A DNA stretch of 64,000 bases from an uncultured Thermoactinomycetaceae bacterium (GCA_937975135.1 CALJVA010000067.1:17792-81791), one strand, 5' to 3'; shown: positions 13,417-39,948, numbered from the stretch's first letter. Made by a program: numbers and translations. Notes: generated by a model from the sequence alone, not told the origin.

Positions 13417-14547
13417 GTGAAAGCATTAACTACAATGGAGCAGAAAATCTTAGAGATGATTAAGAGTAATCGGTTTATTTCCCAGAATGAATTGGCCCAA
13501 CAGCTGGGAATCTCTCGTTCTGCTGTGGCAGGTCATATCTCGGGATTGATGCGGAAGGGATTTGTTCTTGGCCGCGCCTATGTTTTAGCCGAAGAGGGAC
13601 GGATCACTTGTCTGGGCGGAGCTCATATTGACCGGAAAGCAAGGACACTCCAAAAGGTCCAATATGGCACCTCCAACCCGGTACAAGTGCAGGAATCCTT
13701 TGGGGGAGTGGCCCGGAACATTGCAGAAAACTTGGGCCGTCTCGGTGCCTCAGTTGCTTTGATTACTGGGGTAGGACGGGATAAAGAAGGTGAAGCGGTA
13801 CTGCAATATTGTCGGCAGCACGGTATTGATGTGAGTCAGTCCGCGATTTTCTCTGAGGGGAAAACAGGAACTTATACAGCTATTTTGGATCCTACCGGGG
13901 AGATGGTCCTTGCCTTAGCGGATATGGCGATCTATGATCTGGTGACCTGGGAGGTAATCGAAAAGAAGTGGACTCATCTTGCTGCATCCTCATGGATCGT
14001 AGTTGATACCAATCTTCCAAAGGAAGTGTTAACCCATCTCGTCGCCCGCTGTCATGAGGAGGAGATTCCTCTCTGTATCGTACCCACCTCGGTTCCCAAA
14101 TTGGATCGGATTCCTGAAAATCTGGAAGGAGTCGAGCTATTTATCGGTAACCGGGATGAAATCGCATCCTTGGTGGGAGAGAACGCACCAAGCCGAGAGC
14201 AAGTTCCGGAGCTATGTCAGCGAGTACTGGATAAAGGGGCAAAACAGGTGATATTAACCATGGGCGCAGAAGGTGTCTTTTTCATAGATGCCCAGGGTGA
14301 TAAGGGCTGGTTAACTCCCGCAGTCCAACCGATTGTTGATGTAACAGGTGCAGGGGATGCCTTTGCGGCGGGCGTTTTGTTTGCCTTGAATCAAGGACAA
14401 GAGTTGTCTGTTGCTTGCCGGACAGGGATGAGTTTGGCTGAACTCACTTTACAAACGGAAGAGAGTGTCCACTCCTCCCTTACACGTTCATTGTTAAAAG
14501 AGCGCTTAGGGGAATGGGGAAGTTACTTGAAGGAAACAGAGGCATAG
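13417..14547 (+). CDS. psuK: HTH-fused PfkB-family sugar kinase, pseudouridine-kinase-like (YeiI/PsuK type)
   Basis: N-terminal winged helix (ISQNELAQQLGISRSAVAGHISGLMRKG) plus PfkB motifs GGVARNIAENLGRLG and DVTGAGDAF. Adjacent to psuG. Confidence 0.65.
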   Translation: MKALTTMEQKILEMIKSNRFISQNELAQQLGISRSAVAGHISGLMRKGFVLGRAYVLAEEGRITCLGGAHIDRKARTLQKVQYGTSNPVQVQESFGGVARNIAENLGRLGASVALITGVGRDKEGEAVLQYCRQHGIDVSQSAIFSEGKTGTYTAILDPTGEMVLALADMAIYDLVTWEVIEKKWTHLAASSWIVVDTNLPKEVLTHLVARCHEEEIPLCIVPTSVPKLDRIPENLEGVELFIGNRDEIASLVGENAPSREQVPELCQRVLDKGAKQVILTMGAEGVFFIDAQGDKGWLTPAVQPIVDVTGAGDAFAAGVLFALNQGQELSVACRTGMSLAELTLQTEESVHSSLTRSLLKERLGEWGSYLKETEA

Positions 14548-14756
14548 CTGACGAGGAATGCATTCCTTTAGTCACAGTAGTAGCAGGCAATGAACGTCTT
14601 TCAATTTTCAAGGCCAAAGGAATATTAAGCTGCATAGCGTTTCCTTGCTACAAAAAGAGATAAATTAGTGAAAATTACCTTCACAAGTAATGAAGTGGAG
14701 TAGCTGATCATGTTTTTGGATTAGTCAAATAGAGATTTGCGGAGGGACATTAATTG

Positions 14757-15683
14757 ATGAGCAAAAAGTTCTTGGTATTTTCAGAAGAGGTTGCCCAGGC
14801 ACAAGCTGAAGGAAAAGCCATCGTCGCTTTGGAATCGACGATCATTGCCCATGGGATGCCTTATCCTGACAATGTGAAAACTGCCCTAGCGGTAGAGGAA
14901 ATTGTCCGTCAGCATGGCGCAGTTCCAGCAACAATCGCTATACTTGATGGCAAAATTAAGATTGGCCTATCAGAAGAGGAGATTCAATTTTTAGCCACCA
15001 GTGACCAGGTTGCCAAAGTGAGCCGCCGTGATCTTCCCTACGTCGTATCCACTGGAAAACATGGAGCAACCACCGTTGCAGCCACAATGATCTGTGCTCA
15101 ACTGGCTGGGATTGAACTCTTTGTCACTGGGGGGATTGGCGGCGTGCACCGTGAGGGCGAAAAGACGATGGATATCTCTGCCGATCTGCAGGAGCTAGCC
15201 CGCACTAACGTTGCCGTTGTTTGTGCCGGAGCCAAGTCAATCCTTGACATCGGCTTAACACTGGAGTATTTGGAGACCCATGGAGTACCTGTAATCGGGG
15301 TGCAAACCGATAGCTTCCCCGCTTTTTATGCCCGTACCAGTGGGTTTTCCGTCGATTATCGCTTGGATACACCGGAAGAAATCGCAAAACTGATTCGTAC
15401 CAAGTGGGATCTTGGATTGGAGGGAGGCGTCGTCATTGCCAATCCTGTCCCGGCATCCGATGCCATGGAAGAGAAGCAGATTGAAGAAATGATTGCCAAA
15501 GCGTTGGAGAAGGCCAAAGAACGGAATATTACGGGGAAAGGGGTTACCCCATTTTTGCTGGATCAAGTGAAAGAGTTAACCGGCGGGGCCAGCTTGAAAA
15601 CGAACATTGCTCTTGTCAAGCATAACGCCCGTGTCGGTGCCGAGATTGCAGTCCAGTTGCAGAAAAAAGTGGGCTCAATTTGA
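14757..15683 (+). CDS. psuG: Pseudouridine-5'-phosphate glycosidase
   Basis: Conserved IndA/PsuG blocks: [67 protein letters not shown]. Confidence 0.9.
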
Positions 15684-16298
15684 GGTATGGTGATCTTGTA
15701 ATCGATAAGGTAAGAAGTGCAGATCGCACCGTATCCTTTGAGTTGCCTCCAGAATCAATTTGGGGTTGTGTTTGTTGAAAGTTATCTGCTTTATATTGGG
15801 TTGCCAGCGCCTATGCTTTTAAGCGATAAAGGGCGTTGGCCCAATTATTTTCCTCACTGAACAATTCCTCATGCTTCTCCTCGATTACTCTTACTATCCC
15901 GCAAATGATTGTTTGAATTTTTTGTAATCTAGTCTTAGAGGAAAGATGACTTATCTAGAAAATATTCGCCGGACGAAAGATTCGAATTCCACCACATAAA
16001 TGGATAAACTTTACCCTTCTATAGCAAAAAGTGAGATGAAAAACATTCCACTTATTAGCAAATACTAACACATATTCTACTAACCTATCAAACAAATAAT
16101 TATATTTCTATATAAATTTTTATGATGAATCAAATGATATCGGCTTTATTGAATCGCTGTTTTCCATAATTGTCATTGTTTTTACTGTACCTGATAACAA
16201 TAAAATAACGATTAAAAGTTAAAAAATATAGATATAATCTAGCTGAGTTTTTTTAATCAATGGTGTTTAATTACTATTCTCAAATGCTTTTTACGGAA

Positions 16299-16327
16299 TT
16301 GACAAGAAAAATATTTTGCCTTAAAAT
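16299..16327 (+). promoter_or_regulatory. Sigma-A-type promoter of the 16.4-23.7 kb operon
   Basis: TTGACA (16299-16304), 17-nt spacer, TAAAAT (16322-16327). Confidence 0.5.
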
Positions 16328-16351
16328 GAGCGCAACGAAAAATAGGAATCC

Positions 16352-16385
16352 AATTCCGAATATCGGAATTATGGGTGTCGGAATT
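16352..16385. promoter_or_regulatory. Candidate operator: perfect palindrome AATTCCGA-ATA-TCGGAATT plus an extra TCGGAATT half-site
   Basis: Palindrome at 16352-16370 and a third half-site at 16378-16385. A further ACGGAATT at 16293-16300 abuts the -35 (its last two bases are the first two of TTGACA). All lie between the promoter and the ATG at 16407. Confidence 0.5.
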
Positions 16386-16406
16386 GTGTAAAAGGAGGAG
16401 AATTAC

Positions 16407-18122
16407 ATGGAGCCAATCTTGAAGCAGAATGATCTTCCTCTGCGTCCGCCTGAGGAAGTCATGAAGCCGGAACGTCTGGGAGCACTCAGATTTACTTCCA
16501 TTAGTTTTAGCCAGAGTATGTTGCGGAAAGTTTTTCGTGAAGGTTGGAAAATTAAGCGGATACAATTCGACTTAGATGACCAGGGGTATGGAGAAGCTTT
16601 ATATTCTATCGAAACCCCCAACGGAGTCTTCTCGTTTATCGTCTTTTCTCAACATGTAGATGATCAAGAGCGAACCGATCGCGTCATCGCACAGAAGTGG
16701 GATGTCACCTTTGCATTGTGTGAGGGATTAATCACCGAAGAGAAAAAGAAACGTCTAAAAGGTGAACTTCCTCACCAAGAGGCAGGACGTGGAGATGCGA
16801 TGGATCTTGTTTGGTCACGAGCAAATCGTAGTACCCGCGTGTTTGAATATGTTGTGGATCAATTAGCAAAGGGAAAACAACCGGATCCAAATATTTTAAA
16901 TCAAGCCGGTTATCTCTTAAGAACCACTGCTGTTTATGGAAACGGGAAATTTGGGATTGCTTCGTATCGAAAGCTAAACCAAGATCATCCTTTTTATGGT
17001 GCTTTCCGGGCACAAATGTTTGCGGTTTGGATGATTCGAGAGTTTAGTTTTGAATTGGTCGAACATATTGCTCGTGCTCGAAGTCCACAAGCGGTGAGAC
17101 TTGATCCGAAATTAAAGCGCTTTCTTGGGATTGGAAATGCGACGGGATTGGGAATGGTGCCCTTCTTGATCTCGCACCCGAAGTTGCTTCATACGTGGAT
17201 TCGATTGCGTGAAAAAGGTCTGGCACGTGTATTACATGTACACGCTTCGAAGGAAGATGGTCAGAAATTACTCGACTACATTGACCGGGGCATTGCTTAT
17301 TTTCGCGAGTCACCCTTTGTTGAACCGAAGGCATTTGCTAAGCCCCAAGAATTAGTTTCTGAACTTCAAATCCTTCGAAGAGTGGTAGAGGAATTTGTAA
17401 ATCAAGGGACGATCGATCAGAAAAAGTCGGACTATCCATGGAAGGAGCTAACGCAATTCGCTAAAAAACGGGTTGGAATCGAGACCCAAGAACTCCTTCA
17501 TTCACTATTGACGGAAGTATACTCAGATTTGCTTTCAGATTTAGGAGAGCAAACAACAATTGATGAAAGGTATGATTTAACCCCTGAAATGAAAATTGGG
17601 GAACTAAAGCACTTAATCCAGACTAGATATGCATGGGCATTTGAGTATGACTTTTCTGATCCCGATGAAATGAAGTATTTCTGGTATCGTTCCCAGGAGA
17701 AAGAAGAACCAAGAATGGGTGAACGGGGAGTTGAGCCGGGAGAAGAAAATGAACTTCCTGTAAATATTGCACAACAAGTACAGCAACTAAGTCGTCAATT
17801 AGAGAATCGACCTAATACAGAAATCGTTGCGAAATTTGTGATTCAGTATCCTGAGTTTAAATGGATTATTCGTCGTATCCAATCTCTTCAGAATGATGAA
17901 TATGCAGAGATTCACGGCAATCTCTTAGCGAAAGGACTCGTTCCAGTCTATCTCTTGCGTTGTAAACTGGCGATTTTCGGAGCAGAACGATTTGATCCAA
18001 AGTCCAATCGTTGGGTACGTGTTACTTTCTTCCAAGGAGCTCCCTTAGTAACCGACATCGGATCTGACTTTAACGACCATTGGTTCTTCCCATTGATTTC
18101 GCAGATGGAGGGTGAGGAATGA
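16407..18122 (+). CDS. Uncharacterized 571-aa protein (no family recognised)
   Basis: Long ORF with RBS AAAGGAGGAG. Its stop overlaps the next start (ATGA at 18119). No motif I can assign. Confidence 0.7.
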   Translation: MEPILKQNDLPLRPPEEVMKPERLGALRFTSISFSQSMLRKVFREGWKIKRIQFDLDDQGYGEALYSIETPNGVFSFIVFSQHVDDQERTDRVIAQKWDVTFALCEGLITEEKKKRLKGELPHQEAGRGDAMDLVWSRANRSTRVFEYVVDQLAKGKQPDPNILNQAGYLLRTTAVYGNGKFGIASYRKLNQDHPFYGAFRAQMFAVWMIREFSFELVEHIARARSPQAVRLDPKLKRFLGIGNATGLGMVPFLISHPKLLHTWIRLREKGLARVLHVHASKEDGQKLLDYIDRGIAYFRESPFVEPKAFAKPQELVSELQILRRVVEEFVNQGTIDQKKSDYPWKELTQFAKKRVGIETQELLHSLLTEVYSDLLSDLGEQTTIDERYDLTPEMKIGELKHLIQTRYAWAFEYDFSDPDEMKYFWYRSQEKEEPRMGERGVEPGEENELPVNIAQQVQQLSRQLENRPNTEIVAKFVIQYPEFKWIIRRIQSLQNDEYAEIHGNLLAKGLVPVYLLRCKLAIFGAERFDPKSNRWVRVTFFQGAPLVTDIGSDFNDHWFFPLISQMEGEE

Positions 18123-19126
18123 TCAAAGATGAGATGCTGTTTATCGATGGGTTACAACTATGTAAGTGGGACCGAGAGTTACTTTTAGATATGCGCGAAG
18201 GGGGTATCAATTGTATTCATGCAAGTATTGGGTTATGGGAGAATGCACGGGAAACTCTAAGTAACATTGGGCAATGGAATCGCTTTTTCCTTGACAATGA
18301 AGACTTAATCCTTCAAGTAAAAAAAGGTGAAGATATCCTTCGGGCCAAAGAGGAAGGGAAAATCGGTGTCATTTTAGGTATGCAAAATGCATCACTTTTT
18401 GAAGATGAGCTTGCCTTGGTGGAGATTTTCAACCAACTGGGCTTAAAAATTGTCCAATTAACTTACAATAACCAAAATTTAATAGGAAGCAGTTGTTATG
18501 AAGAAAACGATCCAGGCCTTTCCCGATTCGGGAAGAATGTGATTGCCGAGATGAATCGAGTAGGCATGCTTATCGATCTTTCCCATTGTGGAGAACGAAC
18601 AACCCTGGATGCCATCAGTGTATCTTCGCGCCCTGTAGCGATTACCCACGCCAATCCGGACTGGATTTATCCAGCCAAGCGGAATAAATCTCGTGAGGTT
18701 CTCCAAGCCCTTCGTGATCATGATGGAATTCTTGGACTTTGCCTTTACCCCTTCTTAATTGGTGGTCCCGATACTACATTGGAAGAGTTTTGCGAAATGG
18801 TTGCTCGTACGGTTGATTTTATGGGAGTTGAACGAGTCGCGATTGGAACCGATTTAACACTAAATCAGGATGAACAATTCTTGAAATGGATGCGGATGGG
18901 ACGATGGACATTTCAAGTTGAATATGGTGCTGGTTCAAAGGATCAGCCGGGATGGCCTCCTTGGCCAAGTTGGTTCCAAAAGCCATCCGACTTTGGTAAC
19001 ATCGCGGAAGGCTTGCAACGACACGGTTTTCATGCGGATGAGGTAGAAGCGATTATGGGTAAAAACTGGCTACGATTCTTTACGGAAAGTTTTAAATCAG
19101 AAAAGGAGTTGAGCCTATGCGTGTAA
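18119..19126 (+). CDS. Peptidase M19 (renal/membrane dipeptidase)-like amidohydrolase, atypical metal site
   Basis: M19-like blocks LIDLSHCGERT, ITHANP, AIGTDL. The N-terminal motif reads FIDGLQL where M19 enzymes have (V/I)DGHxD, and the expected bridging Glu position reads GMQNAS. Confidence 0.75.
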   Translation: MIKDEMLFIDGLQLCKWDRELLLDMREGGINCIHASIGLWENARETLSNIGQWNRFFLDNEDLILQVKKGEDILRAKEEGKIGVILGMQNASLFEDELALVEIFNQLGLKIVQLTYNNQNLIGSSCYEENDPGLSRFGKNVIAEMNRVGMLIDLSHCGERTTLDAISVSSRPVAITHANPDWIYPAKRNKSREVLQALRDHDGILGLCLYPFLIGGPDTTLEEFCEMVARTVDFMGVERVAIGTDLTLNQDEQFLKWMRMGRWTFQVEYGAGSKDQPGWPPWPSWFQKPSDFGNIAEGLQRHGFHADEVEAIMGKNWLRFFTESFKSEKELSLCV

Positions 19127-19815
19127 GCTATCCAGAGTTGCAAGTCCTATGTGAACGAGTTTTACAAGCAAAAGGCTTTCCACTCGGATCCGTAGTGGAA
19201 GGGGCTGAAATGGTTGTATGGGCAGAGGTTGTCGGATCACAGGGACTAAAAAAATTAGTAGAAAAGTTTGATGTGCTGGAAAAGAGTCAGCCGAAAAGGA
19301 TTCAAATTGCAAGTGAGTCTCCACATCTGACAATATTGGATGGTGCCCATCAGACCGATCTCTTAACTGCTCGAGTAGCTGCAGATTTAGCTTACTCTAA
19401 AGCAACCACCAACGGAGTTGGAGTCGTTGAAGTGATCAACTGTCAGGGAAATGACTGGGTGGCGCAAAATGCGTTTCAAGTCGCCAAAAGAGGCATTTCC
19501 TGTATGATCAGTTGGGATAATTATGTAGCAATTGCGCATCCAGATACAGAGCATCCCAGAATCATGAAGAAATCAGAGGCTCAAGAGAATTCAAACAGTA
19601 TTCTAGTCATCTGTTCAAAATCCGCTTATCAGGAAGAAGCAGGACAACAAGTGATTCGAGAACCGCATCAGATCCAAGAGCGTTGGGATGATGCCATTGG
19701 AAATGGACTGGAAGTAGATCCGGATATTTGGAGGAAGTTAGTTGAAAAAGCAAGAGAAATTTTAGTTGAATCAACTGAACTTTCTCGATTAAAAGGAACG
19801 GGTGAACTAGCGTAA
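19117..19815 (+). CDS. Uncharacterized 232-aa protein (weak resemblance to the N-terminal half of Ldh_2-type dehydrogenases)
   Basis: Overlaps the upstream gene by 10 nt and has a GGAG RBS. The resemblance is by eye only (ELQVLCERVLQAKGFP...AEMVVWAEVVGSQGL). Confidence 0.55.
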   Translation: MRVSYPELQVLCERVLQAKGFPLGSVVEGAEMVVWAEVVGSQGLKKLVEKFDVLEKSQPKRIQIASESPHLTILDGAHQTDLLTARVAADLAYSKATTNGVGVVEVINCQGNDWVAQNAFQVAKRGISCMISWDNYVAIAHPDTEHPRIMKKSEAQENSNSILVICSKSAYQEEAGQQVIREPHQIQERWDDAIGNGLEVDPDIWRKLVEKAREILVESTELSRLKGTGELA

Positions 19816-19829
19816 GGAGGGGCTTTTAA

Positions 19830-21299
19830 ATGGCAGAGAAAACCACTTATGAAGTACACAACTTTATCGATGGGGAATTTGTCCGTGGAAGCAGTGATGA
19901 AGTGAAGAAAGACATCAATCCCGCCAATACGGAAGATGTGATCGCGGAATATGTTCCTTCCACTGAGCAGGATGCACTGCGAGCAGTAGAAGCAGCACAA
20001 CAGGCATTTTCCGAATGGCGAAAAGTACCTGCGCCTCAGAGAGGGAACTATCTATTCCGAGTAGCTGATCGACTGGAAGAGAGAGCGGAAGAATTTGCTC
20101 ATCTAATTGTACGTGAGATGGGGAAGCGACTCATTGAGGCACAGAAAGAAGTGGAGTATGCGATCAATATTCTGCGTTTCTATGCCGGGGAAGGTTCTCG
20201 GTTAAATGGTAAATTGATCGCATCGGATCATCCTGATATCCAGGTTCAATTAATCAAAGAACCTTTAGGGGTTGTTTTAGCCGTTACACCATGGAACTTC
20301 CCACTTTCTATTCCGACTTGGAAAATCGCGCCAGCCATCGTGGCGGGCAATACGGTTGTCTTAAAGCCTTCCTCTGAAACACCTTTGGTCAGTGTGAAAT
20401 TGATGGAGATTTTTCAGGAAGTACAACTTCCTAAAGGGGTAGTGAATGCCGTAGTCGGACCTGGAAGATTGGTCTCCAAGATGATTCATCATCCTGCAGT
20501 ACAAGTGATTACATTTACCGGTTCCAATCGGGTTGGTAACCTTATCTATCAAGAAGCAAGTAAAGAGATGAAACGGGTACAACTCGAGATGGGCGGGAAA
20601 AACCCGTTAATTGTCTTGGATGATGCCGATTTGGATCTGGCTGTGGATCTTGCGATTCGTGGTGGATATGGTCAAGCGGGACAAGCTTGTACGGCCACAA
20701 GTCGTGTGATTGTACAATCTTCCATTGCTGAAGAGTTTACTCGTCGGCTGGTCGAGGAAGTAAAGAAATTAAAAGTGGGAAATGGTTTAGATCCCGATGT
20801 GGATATGGGACCACAAGTAAGCGAAGCAGAGTTGTCATCTACACTAGAAGCGATCCAGCAAGCGCTTTCTGATGGAGCAACACTATTATGTGGGGGAGAT
20901 GTTCCCAAAACCACAGAGACTCAACATGGATTTTTCGTCCAACCCACCGTTTTAGGTAATGTAAAACCAGGGACGAAAATCGCGTTGGAAGAGGTTTTTG
21001 GACCTGTGATCGCGATTATGGAAGTCGAAACGGTGGAGGAAGCGATTGAGCTTGCTAATGAGGTCGAATATGGCTTATCGTCTGCCGTCTGCACAAAAAG
21101 CTTGGCCCGGATGAACCAGGTTGTTCAAGGAGTAGAATCCGGTCTTGTGAAGGTAAATATGACGACCACAGGAACTTCATTCCAGGCTCCTTTTGGAGGA
21201 TACAAAAAGTCGAGTAATGGTGTATTTAAGGAATTGGGTAGTGAAGCGATGGATATTTATACACGTACGAAAACTGCCTATATTCATTATACCTCGTAA
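19830..21299 (+). CDS. NAD(P)-dependent aldehyde dehydrogenase
   Basis: 489 aa. ALDH signatures VTPWNFP, LEMGGKNPLIV (catalytic Glu) and GQACTATSR (catalytic Cys). Confidence 0.9.
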   Translation: MAEKTTYEVHNFIDGEFVRGSSDEVKKDINPANTEDVIAEYVPSTEQDALRAVEAAQQAFSEWRKVPAPQRGNYLFRVADRLEERAEEFAHLIVREMGKRLIEAQKEVEYAINILRFYAGEGSRLNGKLIASDHPDIQVQLIKEPLGVVLAVTPWNFPLSIPTWKIAPAIVAGNTVVLKPSSETPLVSVKLMEIFQEVQLPKGVVNAVVGPGRLVSKMIHHPAVQVITFTGSNRVGNLIYQEASKEMKRVQLEMGGKNPLIVLDDADLDLAVDLAIRGGYGQAGQACTATSRVIVQSSIAEEFTRRLVEEVKKLKVGNGLDPDVDMGPQVSEAELSSTLEAIQQALSDGATLLCGGDVPKTTETQHGFFVQPTVLGNVKPGTKIALEEVFGPVIAIMEVETVEEAIELANEVEYGLSSAVCTKSLARMNQVVQGVESGLVKVNMTTTGTSFQAPFGGYKKSSNGVFKELGSEAMDIYTRTKTAYIHYTS

Positions 21300-21313
21300 A
21301 GGAGGAGCGTTAA

Positions 21314-22054
21314 TTGGCAAAATCAGAAAAACCGGACCTATCATCGACCGTATTACGGGCGATCAAGGTGCTAAATTACTTAAAGGAAGCACCGGGTCCC
21401 CAATCCTTATCCGATATAAGCAGAGATACAAAGCTTTCACAGACGGCAGTTCATCGATTGTTGAATACTTTAAAGGTCGAAGGTTTTGTTTATCAACATC
21501 CACAGACCAAATTATACTCACTTGGCATCGCATTCATTGATTTTGCCAACAATTTCTTAACTGATATGCCGATCGCGCCGTTTGTTGAACCACATCTCAG
21601 CCGATTGCGCGATCAATCTGGGGAAACCGTAGGATTTTATGTGCCGATCGGCAATGAACGTGTCTGTGTGTTGGAATTTGAAAGTCAACAGGAAATTCGA
21701 CGAAGTGTTGGTATTGGTCGAAGACATCCTTTGTATCGAGGGGCAAGTGGGCGGGCCTTATTGGCCCATATGCCCAAAGATTATCAAGAGCGAATTCTAT
21801 CTTTTCTCCCTCTTGAGGAAAGAGAGAAGGTTAAAGAATTGCTTGATATCACTCGCAAAGATGGTTATTCCATCAATGAAGGCGAGATTACGGAAAGCGT
21901 AGGTGCGTTATCTGTTCCTGTTTTTGATCAACATCAAAAAGTGATTGGTGCTTTGTCTGTATCAGGACCCCTTTTCCGTTGGAACAAAGAGACGATGCTT
22001 CCCTTTGTTCCAATTTTGAAAGAAGCTTCGAAAACGATTACATCTTCCATGTAA
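21314..22054 (+). CDS. IclR-family transcriptional regulator
   Basis: 246 aa. N-terminal wHTH (VLRAIKVLNYLKEAPGPQSLSDISRDTKLSQTAVHRLLNTL) plus a C-terminal IclR effector domain (GALSVPVFD...IGALSVSGP). Confidence 0.9.
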   Translation: MAKSEKPDLSSTVLRAIKVLNYLKEAPGPQSLSDISRDTKLSQTAVHRLLNTLKVEGFVYQHPQTKLYSLGIAFIDFANNFLTDMPIAPFVEPHLSRLRDQSGETVGFYVPIGNERVCVLEFESQQEIRRSVGIGRRHPLYRGASGRALLAHMPKDYQERILSFLPLEEREKVKELLDITRKDGYSINEGEITESVGALSVPVFDQHQKVIGALSVSGPLFRWNKETMLPFVPILKEASKTITSSM

Positions 22055-22081
22055 TAAAAAATGATAAAAAGGAGGAGGAAA

Positions 22082-23674
22082 ATGAAAAATTCGTTATCCA
22101 AAAAAGCGATTGACTGGCCGGTATTATTGATAAGTGGTGGCTTTTTGGTCTTGTTTGTTATTGGATCCTTAATCAATAGTGATTTTGTCTCAAACCTAGT
22201 GGATCAATCCTTTAACTTTTCGATTGAATACTTCAGCTCCTTTTATCAGTTCCTGGTATTAGCTTATTTCTTCGTGGCCCTCTTTTTAGGAATTTCAAAG
22301 TATGGAAAGATTCGATTGGGCAAACGAGAAAAGCCGGAAATGAGCACATTTCGATGGATTGCCATTATTATGACGACGCTTATGGCCGGAGGTGGCGTAT
22401 TCTGGGCAGCCGCAGAACCCATGTTTCACTTTATGGAGACTCCTCCATACTTTGCTGAGCAAGGAATTAAGTCTTTAACCGAAGCTGCTGTCGTACCTGC
22501 GTTGAGTCAGAGTTATCTCCACTGGGGATTTATCGCTTGGGCGGTGAATGGAACATTAGGAGCCATCATTTTGATGTATGCCCATTACCATCGCGGAGCT
22601 CCATTAAAACCAAGAACACTTCTTTATCCCATCTTTGGGGATCGACTGTTTCGAAAAAATAGTGTGATCGGAGTTCTTGCTGATTCCGTCGCGATGATCG
22701 CTGTAGCAGCAGGAACCATCGGCCCTGTTGGGTTTCTCGGATTGCAGGCAGGATTTGCATTTGAAGAGATCTTTGGCATTCCCAATAACTTCACACTGCA
22801 TACCATCATAATTTTAGGAGTTGTAATCATCGCCGCCATTTCAGCTGCTACAGGTGTTCATAAAGGAATTCAATTTCTAAGCCGATTAAATGTTAATCTC
22901 ACCATCTTTCTTTGCGTCGCCATTTTATTCATTGGTCCAGGTATGTTTATAATCGATAAATTTTTCGGTGCCTTTGGTACCTATATTCAAAATTATATTG
23001 GCCTTGGAACCTATCGGGGTGACCCCGCGTGGTTAGGTGCTTGGACAGTATTCTTTATCGCTTGGTTTGTTGGATATGCACCTATGATGTCCATTTTCGT
23101 CGCTCGCATTTCCCGCGGCCGCTCCATTCGCCAAATCATCATGATCATCGGTGTAATGGCAGGGATTGTGATGAACTTCTGGTTTACTATTGTGGGTGGT
23201 TCGGGAATTTATTACGAGTTGGTCAACCCAGGATCTATTTCCGAAGTGTTGAGTGAGAATGGAATCCCAGCAGCCATGATCTCGATTACACAACAGCTTC
23301 CTTTGGGTTTCCTGTTTTCAGTACTATTTTTGGCAGTAACCATCATCTTTGTATTAACCACTACCGATTCAATTTCCTATACCATGGCCATCACCCTTAC
23401 AGGTGATGAAAACCCACCAAGGGGATTACGAATATTCTGGGCCCTCATCATGGGTGTGATCAGTGTGATTCTGGTCTCCTTTGGTGAAGGTACGATTAGC
23501 TCCTTACAATCGTTTATTGTCGTAACAGCAATTCCTGTATCAATTCTCATGCTTACAAATCTATGGACTGCACCAAAACTATGTGGTCAAATTGCAAAGG
23601 AGATAGGGATCACTCAATCCAGTGAACAGAAGCTCAACCCAACTCAAAAGGAAGCACTTCCAAGTGAATCTTAA
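22082..23674 (+). CDS. BCCT-family (betaine/carnitine/choline-type) transporter
   Basis: Polytopic protein. BCCT signature WTVFFIAWFVGYAPMMSIFVARISRGRSIRQ. ATG 22082 follows AAAGGAGGAGG. Confidence 0.9.
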   Translation: MKNSLSKKAIDWPVLLISGGFLVLFVIGSLINSDFVSNLVDQSFNFSIEYFSSFYQFLVLAYFFVALFLGISKYGKIRLGKREKPEMSTFRWIAIIMTTLMAGGGVFWAAAEPMFHFMETPPYFAEQGIKSLTEAAVVPALSQSYLHWGFIAWAVNGTLGAIILMYAHYHRGAPLKPRTLLYPIFGDRLFRKNSVIGVLADSVAMIAVAAGTIGPVGFLGLQAGFAFEEIFGIPNNFTLHTIIILGVVIIAAISAATGVHKGIQFLSRLNVNLTIFLCVAILFIGPGMFIIDKFFGAFGTYIQNYIGLGTYRGDPAWLGAWTVFFIAWFVGYAPMMSIFVARISRGRSIRQIIMIIGVMAGIVMNFWFTIVGGSGIYYELVNPGSISEVLSENGIPAAMISITQQLPLGFLFSVLFLAVTIIFVLTTTDSISYTMAITLTGDENPPRGLRIFWALIMGVISVILVSFGEGTISSLQSFIVVTAIPVSILMLTNLWTAPKLCGQIAKEIGITQSSEQKLNPTQKEALPSES

Positions 23675-23720
23675 TCAGCTTTAAACTATCTGACTAATTG
23701 TCCCAAGGTGTTGTCATCGT

Positions 23721-23750
23721 AAAAACCTCCCAAGTTAAGGGAGGTTTTTG
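23721..23750 (+). terminator. Rho-independent terminator ending the operon
   Basis: aaaacctccc-aagtta-agggaggtttt followed by tg. Confidence 0.7.
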
Positions 23751-27106: not shown

Positions 27107-27757
27107 ATGTATCCAGTTGAGATTTTTGTAGTTCATTATCCAGACAGCCTATTATCAGGATTGCAGCTCGTGTTGGAACGCGATATTGAAATTGTAAAAA
27201 GAGGAATCCTCGCAAACCTGTCTACTGAGAAAGATACCTTTCTGTCTAAAGTATCTTGGAAATGTTTTGGAAAAGACATAAAAGAAGTTCAGCAGGCGAT
27301 TACTGAAAAGAAAAGCTCAACAAAGGTGATTTTGTACGCCGATTGTTTGCCAGATTACTGGTTTAGTTATCTCTTAAAAGGTGTCAATGCTGTGGTAGCT
27401 ATCAAAGATCATCAGGAGTTACCAATCGCCATACACCTTGTCTCTCTAGGTGGAATTTATCTCAGCAAGGAATATAAAAATTGTTTTCGTAAAGGGCTAT
27501 ACTTCGAAACTGGTTTTGAATTAGCTAAAAATTGTATAGGATTAACTGAAATGGAGATAAAAGTGATTCGGGAAATTGCACAGGACCGTTCAAATAAGGA
27601 AATTGCTGAAGTGCTCTATATTAGTGAGCGGACTGTAGAATATCATATTTCCTCTGCAATGCGGAAAATGGGAGTAAAGTCAAGGGTTGGATTAGTTGTT
27701 AATATACTAAAAATGAATTTGATAGATTTGAAGGAAATACAAAAATTAAACAGTTGA
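27107..27757 (+). CDS. Orphan LuxR/GerE-family regulator with degenerate receiver-like N-terminus
   Basis: C-terminal HTH LTEMEIKVIREIAQDRSNKEIAEVLYISERTVEYHISSAMRKMGVKSR. The N-terminus EIFVVHYPD lacks the acidic DD pocket of NarL-type receivers. No cognate kinase lies nearby. Confidence 0.8.
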   Translation: MYPVEIFVVHYPDSLLSGLQLVLERDIEIVKRGILANLSTEKDTFLSKVSWKCFGKDIKEVQQAITEKKSSTKVILYADCLPDYWFSYLLKGVNAVVAIKDHQELPIAIHLVSLGGIYLSKEYKNCFRKGLYFETGFELAKNCIGLTEMEIKVIREIAQDRSNKEIAEVLYISERTVEYHISSAMRKMGVKSRVGLVVNILKMNLIDLKEIQKLNS

Positions 27758-27896
27758 ATATGCTATCCAGTACTAAGAAACTAGTGTGTTCCGAGGAAAT
27801 GACTGTGGAAAACACGGAAGATCTAAATAGTTGTATGTGATATATATATAATTAATTCATTTGTCTTAAGATTATATCTATATATCTATCAGAACA

Positions 27897-27958
27897 ACGG
27901 AATATTCATATGATTTACTGACGACGGAATACTAGAACTTATTTAAATGAGTTATTAT
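27897..27958 (+). promoter_or_regulatory. Candidate activator-dependent promoter of the precursor genes (direct repeats ACGGAATA x2 + TATTAT -10)
   Basis: ACGGAATA at 27897-27904 and 27924-27931 (27 bp start to start). TATTAT at 27953-27958 has a poor -35 (TACTAG) that abuts the second repeat. Confidence 0.3.
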
Positions 27959-28033
27959 GCAAGAAATGAAATTTGAATCACCCCCGTCGATGATTTCAAA
28001 AAATGCATGTTTTACAGAAAGGGGGTGAAAAGA

Positions 28034-28186
28034 ATGGAACTGAAGGATCTGGAAATCACTGGGTTAGAAGTGATGGAGTTGAATGATGCGACAGCATTGC
28101 CAGAAACCGGAGCATCTTCTGGTTCAACTTCCTGCTCTGCTACCTCCACATGCGGTTCCTCCTCCTGCTGTGGATCTTGCTGGTAA
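28034..28186 (+). CDS. Thiopeptide/lactazole-type RiPP precursor peptide A1 (50 aa)
   Basis: Hand translation: MELKDLEITGLEVMELNDATALPETGA-SSGSTSCSATSTCGSSSCCGSCW*. RBS GGGGGTG 6 nt upstream. Absent from the ORF track because it is shorter than 60 aa. Confidence 0.85.
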   Translation: MELKDLEITGLEVMELNDATALPETGASSGSTSCSATSTCGSSSCCGSCW

Positions 28187-28288
28187 TGGGTGAGGGAATC
28201 TTTGTAATCATCAGTTTAGATTGGTGATTCCAGTAATAAAAGGATAACTTTATACTTCCCTCAATGCCTTTATGAAAGAGGGGATAGT

Positions 28289-28441
28289 ATGGAACTGAAA
28301 GATCTAGAAATCTCAGGTATCGAGATAATGGATCTAAAAGATGCTACAGCATTGCCAGAGACAGGTGCTTCTGCGGGATCGTCTGGCTGCTCTGCTTGCT
28401 CTACCTGTGGTTCTTGTTCTTGCTGTAGCTCTTGTTTCTAA
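28289..28441 (+). CDS. Thiopeptide/lactazole-type RiPP precursor peptide A2 (50 aa)
   Basis: MELKDLEISGIEIMDLKDATALPETGA-SAGSSGCSACSTCGSCSCCSSCF*. RBS GAGGGGA upstream. Confidence 0.85.
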   Translation: MELKDLEISGIEIMDLKDATALPETGASAGSSGCSACSTCGSCSCCSSCF

Positions 28442-28468
28442 GAATCTACTTTGAGAGGAGGTGAAACT

Positions 28469-28618
28469 ATGGAATTGAAAGAGTTGGAAATCACAGGTTT
28501 GGAAGTAATGGACTTGAATGATGCCACTGCATTGCCAGAAACCGGAGCATCTTCAGGCTCCTCTTCTTGCTCCGCTACATCTACTTGTGGTTCTTCTTCC
28601 TGCTGCGGCTCTTGCTAA
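28469..28618 (+). CDS. Thiopeptide/lactazole-type RiPP precursor peptide A3 (49 aa)
   Basis: MELKELEITGLEVMDLNDATALPETGA-SSGSSSCSATSTCGSSSCCGSC*. RBS AGGAGGTG 5 nt upstream. Confidence 0.85.
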   Translation: MELKELEITGLEVMDLNDATALPETGASSGSSSCSATSTCGSSSCCGSC

Positions 28619-28675
28619 GCTATGGAAGAGGATAATGATTGGGGCCTACAACAAAAGTTATTACTTTTACTTACC

Positions 28676-28715
28676 AATGATGTAATCGATGTGTTTTCAC
28701 ATCGGTTACATCATT
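28676..28715 (+). promoter_or_regulatory. 18-bp stem-loop between the precursor genes and the enzyme genes (attenuator or mRNA-stabilising hairpin)
   Basis: aatgatgtaatcgatgtg-tttt-cacatcggttacatcatt: 17 Watson-Crick pairs plus one G-U. Followed by tatgtattt, a weak U-tract. Confidence 0.5.
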
Positions 28716-28776
28716 TATGTATTTAAGCAATTTTTCACATAATCTAGATAATTAGTTAAAAGTAAGGAGGATTATA

Positions 28777-31509
28777 GTGGCGCAGGCAGGAGTTGCCCTT
28801 TCAACACCCTCAAGGAAACAAGTCATTGATTTGCCTCTATTTATGCTCCGTGTGGCGGGAATGCCTATTCATGAGCTTCTGCGAATGCGGATTCCGCTGA
28901 CGATGAAGTGTCTTAAAGAAATGACCGAAAATCAAAGGTGGATTGAGGCCAACACCCAATGGATTATAGAAAAAATTGAGCAGGAAGTTCCTAAACAGAA
29001 GGATGATAAAATACGTAATCAGCTAATTCAATATAAAAGGGATATTTTTAACAATCGCTTTCCTAAAAAACGCTCCGATCACTTTCACTCTGTTTTACCT
29101 TCTTCCCTACTTGAGCAGATGAAACAATGGGAAGAAGTTTGGCTTACCATTAAAAAATTGAAAGAGGAAGCAAGTCAACATTTTCCCCAAGAGCTTACTA
29201 AGAATCGGGAAGTACTACAGGAAATTATTCAGGATCCGAACTTATTGAGAGGCGTTGTTTTAACAAGCCGCGATTTGTACTACAAGGTGAAAAAATATAT
29301 TGAAACACCGATTCCCAAGCAAAAAGCGAGATTACGAAAAGTAGAGTATTCCCTGAGCAAGTATATTTCTCGTGTAGCAGCTAAAACCAGCCCTTTTAGC
29401 ACATTCACATCTGTAGGGATTGGAGAATGGAGCTCAGAGCATAAGGATGGAAAGCTTCATATTGCCTCTCTTCAGCATAAGAGCCATGTTCAGCTGAATT
29501 ATGCAAACCTTTTGCGGGTAGTGGATGGACTGGTTAAGCAACCGGCGGTAAGAAAACATCTGTCTTACAAAGTAAACCCAACACTGATTGTCGATGAGGG
29601 CAAAGTGAAGTATATTCGACGGTTGGATGATTCTCAAAGAAGAGCCCGCGTTTTCAAGACATTGGAAACACCTGTTTCTTTGAATTTAAATCCAGCGATT
29701 CAAGCAGTGTTTTCTATTCTTCAATCGGAAGATCAGGGTAAAATCGGTTTTATTGAGTTAGCAAAAAGGCTAACTGAACAATTGTCTACTGCCCCAGAAA
29801 ATGTAGAAAAGTTTCTACATCAATTGATTGACTTAGCGATCCTTGTTCCTGATCTTCATTTATATGAACAGACAAATGAGATTATTCCATCCATATTAGA
29901 ATTAATTAAGGAATGGCCGGAAGAAATTGCACAGCGAACTGGAAGTCGATTACAAGACATGGAAGACATTCTGGCCCAATATGGCTCAGCTTCAGTTGAG
30001 GAGCGTGCCGCTTATTTGCAGCGCGTTAAAGAAATTTATCGAGATATATGCACAGACCTTCAGATTGAAATTTCGGAGACCTCTCTGGGACTCTTAGTCT
30101 ATGAAGACGCAATTTTGCAGGAAAAATCATCCTTTTCACTAGATAATTGGAAAGAGTATCTTAATGATCTAGTGGCCTACCAGTCAATTGCCCCTATTTT
30201 TGATGTTAAATTCCGCATTCAATCTGCAATTGCCCAGAAGTTTATCGAAATGTATGGGGAGGATGGAGTGTGTGATAAACCAGGGCAGTTTCTAAGTACT
30301 GTCGTTCCAACATTAACAGAGTTTTATTCTGCCTTTTTACCTACTGCCTTGCCAAAGGATTTGGAGCTTAAGAATGAGTTGAAGCCAATTCGGATATTAA
30401 ACGAGTTACAAAGAGAAATGGGCGAGTTATTATTAGAACGATTTAAGAATGAACAGGAAGAAGTCCACCTTACTCATGAAGAATTGACTTCCTTTGCAGA
30501 GCGGATTCCAAAGGAGATTGCGAGACGGCCTCTGTCCCATGACTGCTTTGTGCAACTGGTTTCCCGTAGTGATGGTGAGGATCTACTCGTACTTAACCAG
30601 ATGTATTTGGGGAATACCACCTTTTTTACACGATTTCTTTCTTATTTTCCAGAGGAAGAGATCACCCAACTACTTCGAAATTATCTATCTACTCTCTATG
30701 AAAAAGAAGGGGTACTGGCAGAAATTTCGGGCGTATATGGTTTTAATGCCAACCTTCATCCTCCTTTGACGCCGTATGAGCTGTCACTTCCCATGTTATC
30801 ACCTACAAGAGATAAAGGAGAAAAAATTAATTGGGAAGACTTGGTGATGGTATACAACAAAGAAAAAGATCGTGTGATTCTTCGTCATCCTGAACTGGGT
30901 GAAGTGACAACACTATTTTTAGGTACCCTGATTCCCATGTTGATTCCCTTTGTGGTTAATTTTATGGCAACCAATTTTAGTAATGGACATTTTTCTAATT
31001 GGTTTCATTTGTTTGCAGAACAAAAATTAACAGAGGAAGAGAAGCAGCAAGTGCGAGTCTATCCTCGTATTTCTGTCGGACGGGTAGTTGTTGCACGTAA
31101 AAAGTGGATTTTTCCCCGCTCCCAACTGGTATATCGTGAAGCGAGGGATGATGAATTTTCCTACTTTACACGAGTGCATGAGTGGAGAAAGAAGTGGGAC
31201 TTACCAGATCGTCTCTTTTTCCGTTTGGCGGCTGAGCGTCAATCAGAGGAATCAACGTTCTCTTTGGATCCCCAAGCAACAGCCAATACAGAGGAGATCG
31301 ATTTTACGGACTTTAAACCCCAATACCTTGACTTCGAAAATCCTTTATTAGTACGTATGTTTGGAAAAATGATCGCAGACAATTCTTACTATGTCATTAT
31401 GGAAGAAATGTTGCCTGATATTGATAATCTGGCTTTATCGAGTGATGGTAGTTCTTATGTTTCAGAACTTTTAGTAGAACTTAGTCGACCAGGATTGAGG
31501 GAGGAATAG
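28777..31509 (+). CDS. LanB-type dehydratase, N-terminal glutamylation domain protein (Lant_dehydr_N)
   Basis: 910 aa. N-terminal FMLRVAGMPIHEL motif and size are typical of split class I lanthipeptide/thiopeptide dehydratases (TclK/LazB-like). GTG start after AAGGAGGA. Confidence 0.8.
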   Translation: MAQAGVALSTPSRKQVIDLPLFMLRVAGMPIHELLRMRIPLTMKCLKEMTENQRWIEANTQWIIEKIEQEVPKQKDDKIRNQLIQYKRDIFNNRFPKKRSDHFHSVLPSSLLEQMKQWEEVWLTIKKLKEEASQHFPQELTKNREVLQEIIQDPNLLRGVVLTSRDLYYKVKKYIETPIPKQKARLRKVEYSLSKYISRVAAKTSPFSTFTSVGIGEWSSEHKDGKLHIASLQHKSHVQLNYANLLRVVDGLVKQPAVRKHLSYKVNPTLIVDEGKVKYIRRLDDSQRRARVFKTLETPVSLNLNPAIQAVFSILQSEDQGKIGFIELAKRLTEQLSTAPENVEKFLHQLIDLAILVPDLHLYEQTNEIIPSILELIKEWPEEIAQRTGSRLQDMEDILAQYGSASVEERAAYLQRVKEIYRDICTDLQIEISETSLGLLVYEDAILQEKSSFSLDNWKEYLNDLVAYQSIAPIFDVKFRIQSAIAQKFIEMYGEDGVCDKPGQFLSTVVPTLTEFYSAFLPTALPKDLELKNELKPIRILNELQREMGELLLERFKNEQEEVHLTHEELTSFAERIPKEIARRPLSHDCFVQLVSRSDGEDLLVLNQMYLGNTTFFTRFLSYFPEEEITQLLRNYLSTLYEKEGVLAEISGVYGFNANLHPPLTPYELSLPMLSPTRDKGEKINWEDLVMVYNKEKDRVILRHPELGEVTTLFLGTLIPMLIPFVVNFMATNFSNGHFSNWFHLFAEQKLTEEEKQQVRVYPRISVGRVVVARKKWIFPRSQLVYREARDDEFSYFTRVHEWRKKWDLPDRLFFRLAAERQSEESTFSLDPQATANTEEIDFTDFKPQYLDFENPLLVRMFGKMIADNSYYVIMEEMLPDIDNLALSSDGSSYVSELLVELSRPGLREE

Positions 31510-31512
31510 TTT

Positions 31513-32652
31513 TTGTGGAAAGCGATTCATATTTATTATTACCAAGATGATAAAGAAGGTTTGTTACTGGATGGCATTCGTCCTGTAGTCAAAAGTTTGC
31601 GCGATACATACCAGGTTGAACGTATTTATCTAAAGAGACATTGGAAATTGGGTCCTCACATTATTTTATATGTCGATGCTTTGGAAGAAAGATTTGAAAA
31701 AGTACTTTATCCCTTTATTGAACAAGAAATTTACAAGTATCTTAAGGAACACCCATCGACACAGGTGATCGATCCCGTTGCTTATGTAAAGCAATCAGAA
31801 ACATTGGGTGCGTGGGAGCTGGAACCAGGCCCTTATGAACCGCTTGAACCAGACAATTCCATCAGTGTTAAGCCTGTTCGATCTCGAGCTGAATTGGTCA
31901 ATGGGGAAGAAGTAGCTCATCTCATTGAGAACTTTATGGTAGACAGTGTTGATCTTGTGTTTGACTGTTTGGATTCTACTCGAGGTCAAATTAATCAGCG
32001 GTATGGAAAACTGATTCAGATGATGGCTGTAATTGGCCAAATGTATCCCGTTGATGGGATTATCCGTGGTCATCTTTCTTATCGATCCCATGTTGAAGGG
32101 TATTTGCATTCTTTTGATAAAGAGGGAAAGATTCGACAAGTTTTTTTAGAAAATGAACGTGGAATGATGAAGACCGTCGATCATCTTGTACGGGATATTA
32201 TGGACCATACAAATGAGGATGGTACTTACGGAGGGGACGACCCCTTTTTACAGTCCTGGTCAGAAGTTCTTTCTAAATTGTATCAAGAAGCATTCCCTCT
32301 GGCTCAAGCAGGAAAAATTAACGCTGACACATCCCACTATAGAGAGATTGCCGCTAGAATAGGGGAACAAGCAAAAAAGCGTTGGGATCTAACACAGGAT
32401 CAAAGCGATTTTCACCGGCATCTTCAATCGGAAGAAGAAGGTTTGCGTGTTTTAAACAGTCCTGAATTTGCAACCTATCGTATCTTGGTAAATAATTTTT
32501 ATTCCTTGTTGCCTCTTTTGGGAATTAATCCAAATGTAAAGCACTTACTCTGTTTTCTGGTTGCCAATTCTGTAGAGAGAATTGCACAAGTAACATGGCA
32601 GGAACTTATGGGATATCAAAAGGGTGAGAATACTTATGAAACCAAAACTTAA
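31513..32652 (+). CDS. Thiopeptide-type bacteriocin biosynthesis domain protein (SpaB_C / Lant_dehydr_C): glutamate-elimination partner or pyridine synthase
   Basis: 379 aa. Family hallmark W..IHIYYY....LLLDGIRPVV...YLKRHWKLGPHIILYV. Confidence 0.75.
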   Translation: MWKAIHIYYYQDDKEGLLLDGIRPVVKSLRDTYQVERIYLKRHWKLGPHIILYVDALEERFEKVLYPFIEQEIYKYLKEHPSTQVIDPVAYVKQSETLGAWELEPGPYEPLEPDNSISVKPVRSRAELVNGEEVAHLIENFMVDSVDLVFDCLDSTRGQINQRYGKLIQMMAVIGQMYPVDGIIRGHLSYRSHVEGYLHSFDKEGKIRQVFLENERGMMKTVDHLVRDIMDHTNEDGTYGGDDPFLQSWSEVLSKLYQEAFPLAQAGKINADTSHYREIAARIGEQAKKRWDLTQDQSDFHRHLQSEEEGLRVLNSPEFATYRILVNNFYSLLPLLGINPNVKHLLCFLVANSVERIAQVTWQELMGYQKGENTYETKT

Positions 32653-36462: not shown

Positions 36463-36472
36463 GGTGGACTTA

Positions 36473-38020: not shown

Positions 38021-38047
38021 ATTAAGACGAGGTGACGGTTAACTCAT

Positions 38048-39946: not shown

Positions 39947-39948
39947 GA

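Follow-up and report, generated by a model that had tools for sequence, protein, structure and literature searches.

A candidate homarine operon of the hom type with an IclR-family regulator in an uncultured Thermoactinomycetaceae bacterium

Organization and control signals of the operon

The DNA analyzed here, hereafter the window, is a stretch of 64,000 nucleotides from an uncultured Thermoactinomycetaceae bacterium (GCA_937975135.1 CALJVA010000067.1:17792-81791), and this study concerns one operon within it that probably belongs to the hom type described for the bacterial use of homarine. Six open reading frames (ORFs) lie co-directionally on the plus strand at 16407-23674 and form one transcription unit (Table 1). 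In order, they encode a 571-amino acid (aa) protein, designated X, a Peptidase_M19-like protein, a 232-aa protein, designated Y, an aldehyde dehydrogenase (ALDH), an IclR-family regulator and a BCCT transporter. The first three genes overlap, and the remaining gaps measure 6-14 nucleotides (nt). The transporter gene starts at 22082 in public gene calls (530 aa) versus a first ATG at 22061. The locus was found in identical form on 26 public contigs.

An earlier note, made from the sequence alone, had described these genes as a six-gene operon with a promoter, an operator and a terminator, and all of these elements were recovered at their places. The promoter precedes the first start codon by 80 nt. 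Just downstream of it stands the perfect palindrome AATTCCGA-ATA-TCGGAATT (16352-16370), which is followed by a third half-site, TCGGAATTG, at 16378-16386; a fourth, CGGAATTG at 16294-16301, overlaps the -35 hexamer. The motif TTCCGA-N3-TCGGAA or its half-site is also present upstream of the orthologous IclR-type operons of two Brevibacillus species (L014 and L015), Planococcus (L097) and Salinicoccus (L096), where it again lies between promoter and start codon. This recurrence argues for a conserved operator rather than a chance match, and the palindrome is presumably bound by the operon's own IclR protein. At the other end of the operon, the hairpin AAAAACCUCCC-loop-GGGAGGUUUUU has a minimum free energy of -29.5 kcal/mol (z = -4.56), and none of 200 shuffled sequences folded as well. 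This hairpin is missed by a simple terminator scan and was found by folding against shuffles.

Table 1. Coordinates of the features discussed. Locations are window positions unless preceded by an L number, which denotes one of the related loci.
Feature	Location	Strand	Remarks
Sigma-A type promoter, TTGACA-17-TAAAAT	16299-16327	+	11/12 match; top site of a 9-kb scan
Putative IclR operator	16352-16386		Inverted repeats I4, I6 and I11; palindrome and third half-site
X, putative HomB homologue	16407-18122	+	571 aa; no Pfam family
M19-like protein, putative HomC homologue	18119-19126	+	335 aa; ATGA overlap with X gene; PF01244, E 7e-76
Y, putative HomA homologue	19117-19815	+	232 aa; 10-nt overlap with M19-like gene; Ldh_2, E 7e-11, and DUF3726
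ALDH, NAD(P)-dependent, putative HomD homologue	19830-21299	+	489 aa; Aldedh, E 6e-170
IclR-family regulator	21314-22054	+	246 aa, TTG start; HTH_IclR and IclR_C
BCCT transporter, HomT-like	22061-23674	+	537 aa from first ATG; BCCT, E 2e-140
Intrinsic terminator	23722-23750	+	10-bp G+C-rich stem, then U tract
HTH and PfkB kinase, pseudouridine kinase-like	13417-14547	+	Directly upstream pair with Indigoidine_A protein
Indigoidine_A protein, pseudouridine glycosidase-like	14754-15683	+	Directly upstream pair with PfkB kinase
c-di-AMP riboswitch	7812-7979	+	97 bits
GerE/LuxR regulator	27107-27757	+	Thiopeptide cluster
Thiopep_pre precursor genes (two)	28007-28186, 28289-28441	+	Thiopeptide cluster
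Small ORF	28518-28685	+	No Pfam match; third after the two precursor genes
LanB-type dehydratase, split	28777-31509, 31513-32652	+	Thiopeptide cluster
YcaO	34495-36462	+	Thiopeptide cluster
Nitroreductase-like protein	36314-38020	+	Thiopeptide cluster
Lant_dehydr_C protein	38048-39019	+	Thiopeptide cluster
ThiF-like protein	39949-41070	+	Thiopeptide cluster
T-box leader	43823-44088	+	136 bits; runs into ORF 44037-45110
Formate dehydrogenase-type genes	L017/L019 2066-6570; L056 12931-17648; L065 12481-15566; L101 11418-13655
Paralogue, S. meliloti pSymB	L013 11223-23167		PotD-type ABC transporter, class III aminotransferase, two RidA genes
Paralogue, fusion locus	L098 70-10739		Divergent M24, EutA-like and TRAP genes
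Paralogue, fusion locus	L102 7980-15497		Amidohydro_2 with TctC
Natrinema versiforme plasmid pNVE500	L094 3530-14285		X, 317-aa Y-like protein, BCCT, betaine-aldehyde-dehydrogenase-type ALDH, dihydrodipicolinate synthase (DHDPS)-family protein, IclR, HyuAB

The encoded proteins and their conserved neighbourhood

The earlier note had called X an orphan, which it is not: at an identity of 90% its family numbers 6,727 homologous clusters, every one labelled 'hypothetical', and at 50% it numbers 1,677. The nearest named homologues, from Ammoniphilus and Brevibacillus, are 61-65% identical. The accompanying statement that X belongs to no recognisable family holds for Pfam, which gave no match for X or for 33 relatives, but not for this large homologous family, in which about 80 residues are invariant across an alignment of 34 diverse members. 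A sequence search of the PDB with X returned no match. The AlphaFold2 model of X has a predicted local distance difference test score (pLDDT) of 88.8 and a predicted template modelling score (pTM) of 0.90, and a Foldseek search of the PDB with this model found nothing at E<0.001, so that the fold of X is apparently new. Literature searches on DUF3726, PA5396/7, 2I5G and related gene names retrieved nothing on X.

The same structure search gave the opposite outcome for Y, which had likewise been described as unknown. Y carries the N-terminal portion of Ldh_2 and DUF3726, and its model (pLDDT 75.8) matched type-2 malate/lactate, ureidoglycolate and piperideine-2-carboxylate (Pip2C) dehydrogenases with E 1e-11 and probability 1.0 (1v9n, 2x06, 4fjs and 1wtj). 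Y has its fold in common with the Ldh_2 family, which includes these malate/lactate and ureidoglycolate enzymes, the DpkA reductase of Pip2C and pyrroline-2-carboxylate (Pyr2C) and N-methyl-amino-acid dehydrogenase. However, Y is fast-evolving, poorly conserved and about 100 residues shorter than the Ldh_2 enzymes, and it has a two-residue deletion located exactly at the SH of the catalytic 'SHG'. This deletion was found in all Y domains examined (47 fused and 65 separate), whereas every full-length Ldh neighbour keeps 'xSHG'. Y lacks both the SHG histidine and the length of approximately 330-360 aa that mark Ldh_2 oxidoreductases, and it is probably a structural partner rather than a dehydrogenase.

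The partner of Y is likely to be X. With a custom hidden Markov model (HMM), we looked for Y domains in 150 proteins, the best representatives of the X family at 50% identity, and Pfam DUF3726 was also recognized in several of them. The length was 740-960 aa in 49 of the 150 representatives, all but two of which (47) carried a C-terminal Y domain, and inspection of three of the fusion genes on their contigs confirmed them. Such common fusions form a Rosetta-stone pattern, which suggests that the overlapping genes encode physical partners, as the earlier note had supposed from the overlaps. A heterodimer of HomA and HomB, to which we relate Y and X below, has also been predicted with AlphaFold (PMC13236597), with a combined interface and overall score (ipTM+pTM) of 0.95. 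Y of the window is translationally coupled, but in this and further Firmicute copies the M19-like gene sits between X and Y, so that the putative homA is not directly beside the putative homB.

The M19 family is known for the hydrolysis of dehydropeptides. The membership of the M19-like protein in this family, proposed in the earlier note, was upheld, but the protein is not a canonical binuclear-zinc dipeptidase. Its closest solved structure is 2i5g (E 1e-74), a structural-genomics 'amidohydrolase' of 325 aa, the same size as PA5396, and true dipeptidases were reached at only E 1e-19. Relative to the human DPEP1 sequence, the reference for residue mapping, the canonical H20/D22/E125/H152 correspond to L12/L14/Q89/Y116, and H156/H177/D245 are retained. 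The replacements affect both ligands of the alpha metal as well as the bridging Glu and catalytic His, and what is retained are the two His of the beta site and the Asp of strand 8; the E-to-Q replacement was seen directly in a HMMER alignment to Sco3058 (3id7). The pattern L, L/Y, Q, Y was uniform in about 70 cluster-linked homologues. The protein does not possess the HxD, bridging Glu and catalytic His of the binuclear-zinc dipeptidase site, and on the basis of these residues a canonical dipeptidase role was rejected.

The M19-like amidohydrolase of dgc (dimethylglycine) operons belongs to the same 2i5g/PA5396 subfamily and presents the identical replacement pattern, but there it is accompanied by a DUF5943+V4R protein and DgcAB, and not by X and Y. 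On the Ralstonia solanacearum megaplasmid (L099, 7992-13687) and a Salipiger abyssi plasmid (L100, 7992-13672), an M19-like protein with L, I, Q and Y for H, D, E and H is encoded in a dgc operon beside a DUF5943+V4R gene. The Salipiger copy stands a few genes from the hydantoinase/oxoprolinase genes HyuAB.

The best NCBIfam models of the ALDH are those of 2,5-dioxovalerate and alpha-ketoglutarate-semialdehyde dehydrogenases, at 570 bits and under their cut-offs of 750-770 bits. The same ranking, always below the equivalog cut-off, was obtained for the cluster ALDHs of Ruegeria, Pseudomonas, Aminobacter, Planococcus and Rubrobacteraceae. The BCCT transporter also scores under all NCBIfam equivalog cut-offs, and an OpuA-type betaine ABC transporter stands in for it at some related loci. 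Regulators of the IclR family are also found in the clusters of Brevibacillus, Lentibacillus, Salinicoccus, Planococcus and Natrinema and in the paralogous cluster of S. meliloti pSymB.

We examined 89 related loci from genome contigs, annotated plasmids and metagenome contigs; the Natrinema plasmid was treated separately. The companions of X at these loci were M19-like genes (72 of 89), Y (65), ALDH (54), LysR (45), BCCT (39), RidA of the Arg type (27) and full-length Ldh (12). The clusters are distributed across Firmicutes, Chloroflexota, Actinomycetota (Rubrobacteraceae) and Alpha- and Gammaproteobacteria, in addition to the Natrinema plasmid, for which no M19-like gene is annotated in the cluster. 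Brevibacillus, Lentibacillus, Salinicoccus and Planococcus present the same Firmicute layout as the window.

Two kinds of neighbours recur around these clusters. Genes annotated as 'sarcosine oxidase' adjoin the cluster in Ruegeria TM1040 and Phaeobacter, and in Roseobacters and Ectothiorhodospiraceae the adjacent genes carry a sarcosine oxidase annotation or resemble dimethylglycine dehydrogenase (DMGDH) and are accompanied by electron-transfer flavoprotein (ETF) genes. At five loci (L017, L019, L056, L101 and L065), formate dehydrogenase genes adjoin the cluster or follow directly downstream of it. Among them are genes for an alpha subunit that exceeds the TIGR01591 cut-off and has NuoE/F-like partners, as well as FdhD and FdhF/YdeP-family genes, and some are translationally coupled to the cluster; at two further loci (L038 and L057) genes of a related molybdo-oxidoreductase set are found a few kb from the cluster. 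The formate dehydrogenase neighbours suggest that formate is released as a product of the pathway, a point not raised in PMC13236597.

Correspondence with the hom operon and competing explanations

Homarine (N-methylpicolinate) is a common N-methylated betaine of the sea and of plants, and it is among the most abundant small nitrogen compounds of marine plankton and invertebrates. Its bacterial use was described in March 2026 by Ferrer-Gonzalez et al. (Nat Microbiol; PMC13236597), who defined a hom operon consisting of homABCDER and homT. According to this study, the gene order in Cobetia sp. OBi1 is homE-homA-homB-homT-homC-homD-homR and the hom genes of Ruegeria pomeroyi DSS-3 are SPO3188-3192, homB being ACFLL8_11500 in Cobetia and SPO3189 in R. 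pomeroyi. HomC was described as a predicted peptidase, HomD as an ALDH and HomT as a glycine-betaine-type transporter. Growth with homarine or its induction of the genes, and conversion to N-methylglutamate, were shown only in Cobetia, R. pomeroyi and nine isolates, and growth was lost in homB, homC, homD and homR mutants. Isotope tracing indicated that the ring is opened with the N-methyl group kept, through C7H9NO5, C6H9NO4 and C6H9NO3 and then N-methylglutamate, which N-methylglutamate dehydrogenase (mgd) converts to glutamate. The genes of this last enzyme are usually mis-annotated as sarcosine oxidase, and the sox-annotated genes of Cobetia and R. pomeroyi encode it; an mgd-less Vibrio isolate still grows on homarine. 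Across 11,755 genomes, homA lay next to homB in 97.7%, and 95.7% of the surveyed hom genomes were Alpha- or Gammaproteobacteria. The homB HMM gave E-values down to 1e-240 and that of homA was weak; the profiles of homC and homD were unspecific (all PMC13236597).

Among our loci, those of the Halomonadaceae Onishia (L032) and Vreelandella (L085) read LysR<ALDH-M19-BCCT-X-Y-RidA, which corresponds gene for gene to homR-homD-homC-homT-homB-homA-homE of Cobetia. This identical order suggests that X is HomB, Y is HomA, the M19-like protein is HomC, the ALDH is HomD, RidA is HomE and the BCCT transporter is HomT. The strong homB and weak homA profile scores are consistent with this correspondence, in which a long, conserved X stands beside a short, fast-evolving Y. 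It also agrees with the published descriptions of HomC, HomD and HomT, with the unspecific homC and homD profiles, with the usual adjacency of homA and homB and with the predicted HomA-HomB heterodimer. X of the window aligns over its full length, with 41-47% identity, to the protein at the homB position in the clusters of Halomonadaceae, Ruegeria, Vibrio and Pseudomonas, and the homC- and homD-type genes of the window belong to the same subfamilies as those of the proteobacterial clusters. The window and the hom operons of Cobetia and R. pomeroyi present the same enzyme families with X and Y tightly coupled in both, and a BCCT or betaine-type transporter gene within the operon is common to Cobetia and the window. 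These results suggest that the host, seemingly a member of the Bacillales, probably carries an operon of the hom type whose substrate is homarine or a closely similar compound. The earlier note had proposed a catabolic route for a betaine- or ectoine-like solute, or a modified amino acid, that matched none of the known choline, carnitine, ectoine and proline-betaine pathways. This proposal holds for the most part, in that the operon is probably a substrate-inducible one for the use of a betaine-class solute, and the two proteins that it could not place have, in part, been assigned to a characterised pathway by the hom operon (PMC13236597).

Several observations weigh against this assignment. 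The correspondence with the Hom proteins rests on synteny, family identity and the descriptions in PMC13236597 and not on direct alignment to Hom sequences, and the identity of the window proteins to proteobacterial cluster members ranges, besides the values for X, from 46 to 54% for the M19-like protein, from 35 to 42% for the ALDH and from 42 to 55% for the transporter. The regulator is of the IclR family in contrast to the LysR-type HomR of the proteobacterial loci, although the LysR type of HomR is judged from position in these loci. The gene order in the window is homB-homC-homA-homD-R-homT rather than the R<D-C-T-B-A-E of Cobetia. Unlike the Cobetia hom operon, the copy in this Firmicute host lacks homE (RidA) and has no mgd nearby: tblastn detected no sox- or mgd-like gene in the 64-kb window, and the window copy has no full-length Ldh. 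The host is related to soil genera, and in soil homarine is not known as an abundant compound. Divergent X-Y(-M19) clusters, with about 33% identity in X, occur in other gene contexts (Table 1) and probably represent uncharacterised pathways for other nitrogenous substrates, which indicates that the family has more than one substrate. Finally, the ring-opening, ALDH, deformylation and final steps of the route outlined in the next section are steps that we infer here, and HomA and HomB have been proposed to be a TgnAB-like flavin reductase/oxygenase pair in which HomA has binding motifs for flavin adenine dinucleotide (FAD; PMC13236597).

Some of these differences would be expected if the same enzyme family acted on another N-methylated heteroaromatic or cyclic betaine, for instance trigonelline or a pyridinium carboxylate of plants or soil. 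The 41-47% identity of X, the change in regulator family and gene order, the soil genera closest to the host and the paralogous X-Y subfamilies in other contexts are all compatible with such a substrate. We nevertheless consider it unlikely, because the complete set of BCCT, X, Y, M19-like protein and same-subfamily ALDH is the hom set and not that of a paralogue context. Trigonelline, moreover, has a separate tgn pathway. In addition, hom operons have been published from soil, food and clinical genomes (PMC13236597).

It is very improbable that the operon is a demethylation module for glycine betaine, dimethylglycine or sarcosine, in which X, Y and the M19-like protein would free formaldehyde for oxidation to formate by the ALDH. 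This explanation draws on the ligand-degenerate M19-like subfamily in the dgc operons of Pseudomonas, Vibrio and Ralstonia (PMC13492115, PMC12093977) and on the sarcosine oxidase-annotated or DMGDH-like, ETF and formate dehydrogenase genes near the cluster. However, the sarcosine oxidase-annotated neighbours may equally encode N-methylglutamate dehydrogenase, and the loss of homarine growth in homB, homC and homD mutants argues for a different substrate (PMC13236597); the ALDH is a dicarboxylate-semialdehyde-type enzyme rather than any known formaldehyde dehydrogenase. PA5397, encoded in the dgc operon of P. aeruginosa, was at first taken for a DUF3726 protein, which proved wrong. The small dgc protein of Ralstonia is DUF5943+V4R and did not match the Y HMM, which leaves the M19-like protein as the only component common to both systems, and for this reason the idea of a dimethylglycine demethylase was dropped. 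An alternative route for ectoine, hydroxyectoine or N-acetyl-diaminobutyrate, with X-Y as ring hydrolase, the M19-like protein as deacetylase and the ALDH as aspartate-semialdehyde dehydrogenase, could account for the halophile-rich distribution and for the EutA-like, TRAP and M24 genes near some X-Y fusion loci. BCCT carriers are also able to import ectoine. We judge this route highly improbable: the M24 protein reaches 49 bits where the DoeA cut-off is set at 613, the EutA-like proteins score below their cut-off, these contexts belong to divergent paralogues, and the published genetic and isotope evidence is for homarine (PMC13236597). There is next to no likelihood that the substrate is an ordinary dipeptide or modified amino acid cleaved by a true dipeptidase, as the strong Pfam Peptidase_M19 match might imply, given the subfamily-wide replacement of four canonical active-site residues and a transporter of the BCCT or OpuA type rather than a peptide carrier.

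More generally, none of the ectoine/hydroxyectoine, (hydroxy)proline betaine, carnitine, choline-to-betaine and creatinine routes explains the whole conserved set. These ideas arose from neighbours such as the HpbD-like epimerases of a Pseudomonas plasmid, the DHDPS-like and HyuAB genes of Natrinema and the EutA-like and M24 genes of fusion loci, the products of the last two falling well short of their equivalog cut-offs.

A possible route of ring opening and its implications

The clusters combine an oxo-acid-semialdehyde-type ALDH with an amide hydrolase from a family of dehydropeptidases. Taken together with an imine deaminase, a DpkA-type reductase in occasional clusters, genes for handling C1 units or formate and a carrier for betaines, this suggests the ring opening of an N-methylpyridinium carboxylate. 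In the homarine assignment, the BCCT transporter would import homarine, and an IclR repressor bound to the TTCCGA-N3-TCGGAA palindrome would be released by homarine or an intermediate. HomB, together with HomA as a catalytically degenerate partner of Ldh_2 fold, would open the pyridinium ring while the nitrogen keeps its methyl group. Cleavage may occur between C5 and C6, such that C6 would stay bound to nitrogen as N-formyl and an aldehyde would form at C5. HomD would then oxidise this aldehyde to N-formyl-N-methyl-dehydroglutamate (C7H9NO5, i.e., homarine + O2 + H2O), from which HomC would strip the formyl group as formate to yield N-methyl-dehydroglutamate or N-methyl-2-iminoglutarate (C6H9NO4). 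Reduction would give N-methylglutamate (C6H11NO4), and a N-methylglutamate dehydrogenase encoded elsewhere would produce glutamate. Alternatively, where a RidA-type HomE is present, the imine tautomer may be hydrolysed to 2-oxoglutarate and methylamine, which would explain the growth of the mgd-less Vibrio isolate on homarine.

The published succession of C7 and C6 intermediates implies that one carbon must be lost. The proposed route would account for this loss, for the likeness of the ALDH to alpha-ketoglutarate-semialdehyde dehydrogenase and for the formate dehydrogenase neighbours. Its formulas C7H9NO5 and C6H9NO4 match published intermediates, and the formula arithmetic closes.

Two known pathways offer partial precedents. 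In the tgn pathway for trigonelline (N-methylnicotinate) of Acinetobacter baylyi, the flavin reductase/oxygenase TgnAB is followed by the ALDHs TgnC/E and the hydrolase TgnF; an N-methylpyridinium carboxylate is likewise opened with the N-methyl group kept and then passes through ALDH and amide-hydrolase steps, but X and Y bear no resemblance to flavin reductases or flavin-dependent oxygenases. Pathways for nicotinate and picolinate use the 2,5-dihydroxypyridine dioxygenase NicX and then the N-formylmaleamate deformylase NicD. They provide a precedent for C5-C6 cleavage that leaves an N-formyl group and later formate, as a mechanistic analogy only, since the enzyme families are unrelated and no N-methyl group is involved. 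In neither X nor Y did Pfam detect a domain for flavin, FAD or oxygenase function, and the Ldh_2 fold of Y and the lack of a PDB neighbour for X lower the standing of a TgnAB-type flavin pair, which our data do not support; an oxygen-dependent ring opening is compatible with them.

It is possible, if not quite probable, that HomB and HomA together form a new pyridinium ring-opening enzyme in which a catalytic subunit of unsolved fold, perhaps with a metal site of invariant His and carboxylate residues, is paired or fused with a dehydrogenase-derived pseudoenzyme, that HomC is an N-formyl-enamide deformylase freeing ring C6 as formate and that the flavin model is wrong. On the same tentative footing, X-Y(-M19) and its paralogues may constitute a general, unrecognised system of C-N/C-C cleavage for nitrogenous solutes. 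The earlier note had regarded the 571-aa and 232-aa proteins as likely novel catalysts; they do appear to be pathway-defining components, but the gene set was already defined genetically in 2026 (PMC13236597).

The genes on both sides of the operon are unrelated to it. An AT-rich spacer of 720 nt without ORFs (15684-16406) separates the operon from the upstream Indigoidine_A gene, and the downstream flank includes Hsp20, an ECF sigma/anti-sigma pair and holA. Further downstream, the window contains a thiopeptide biosynthetic gene cluster on the plus strand (27107-42000), and a c-di-AMP riboswitch and a T-box leader were also detected (Table 1).

The system is already known as a kind, and the window adds a member with a new regulator type and a different gene order, in a Firmicute and thus a new phylum. 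The biochemical question has become sharper, with a fold in X that has no solved relative, a dead dehydrogenase in Y that is often fused to it and a 'peptidase' without most of its canonical metal site, and the formate dehydrogenase neighbours combined with the published formulas lead to a concrete and testable order of steps. The route of homarine breakdown was identified only in 2026, and the window shows the gene set in Gram-positive bacteria. Together with the related loci in Chloroflexota, Actinomycetota and on a haloarchaeal plasmid, this suggests a pathway of greater age and wider distribution than the mostly proteobacterial survey would indicate.

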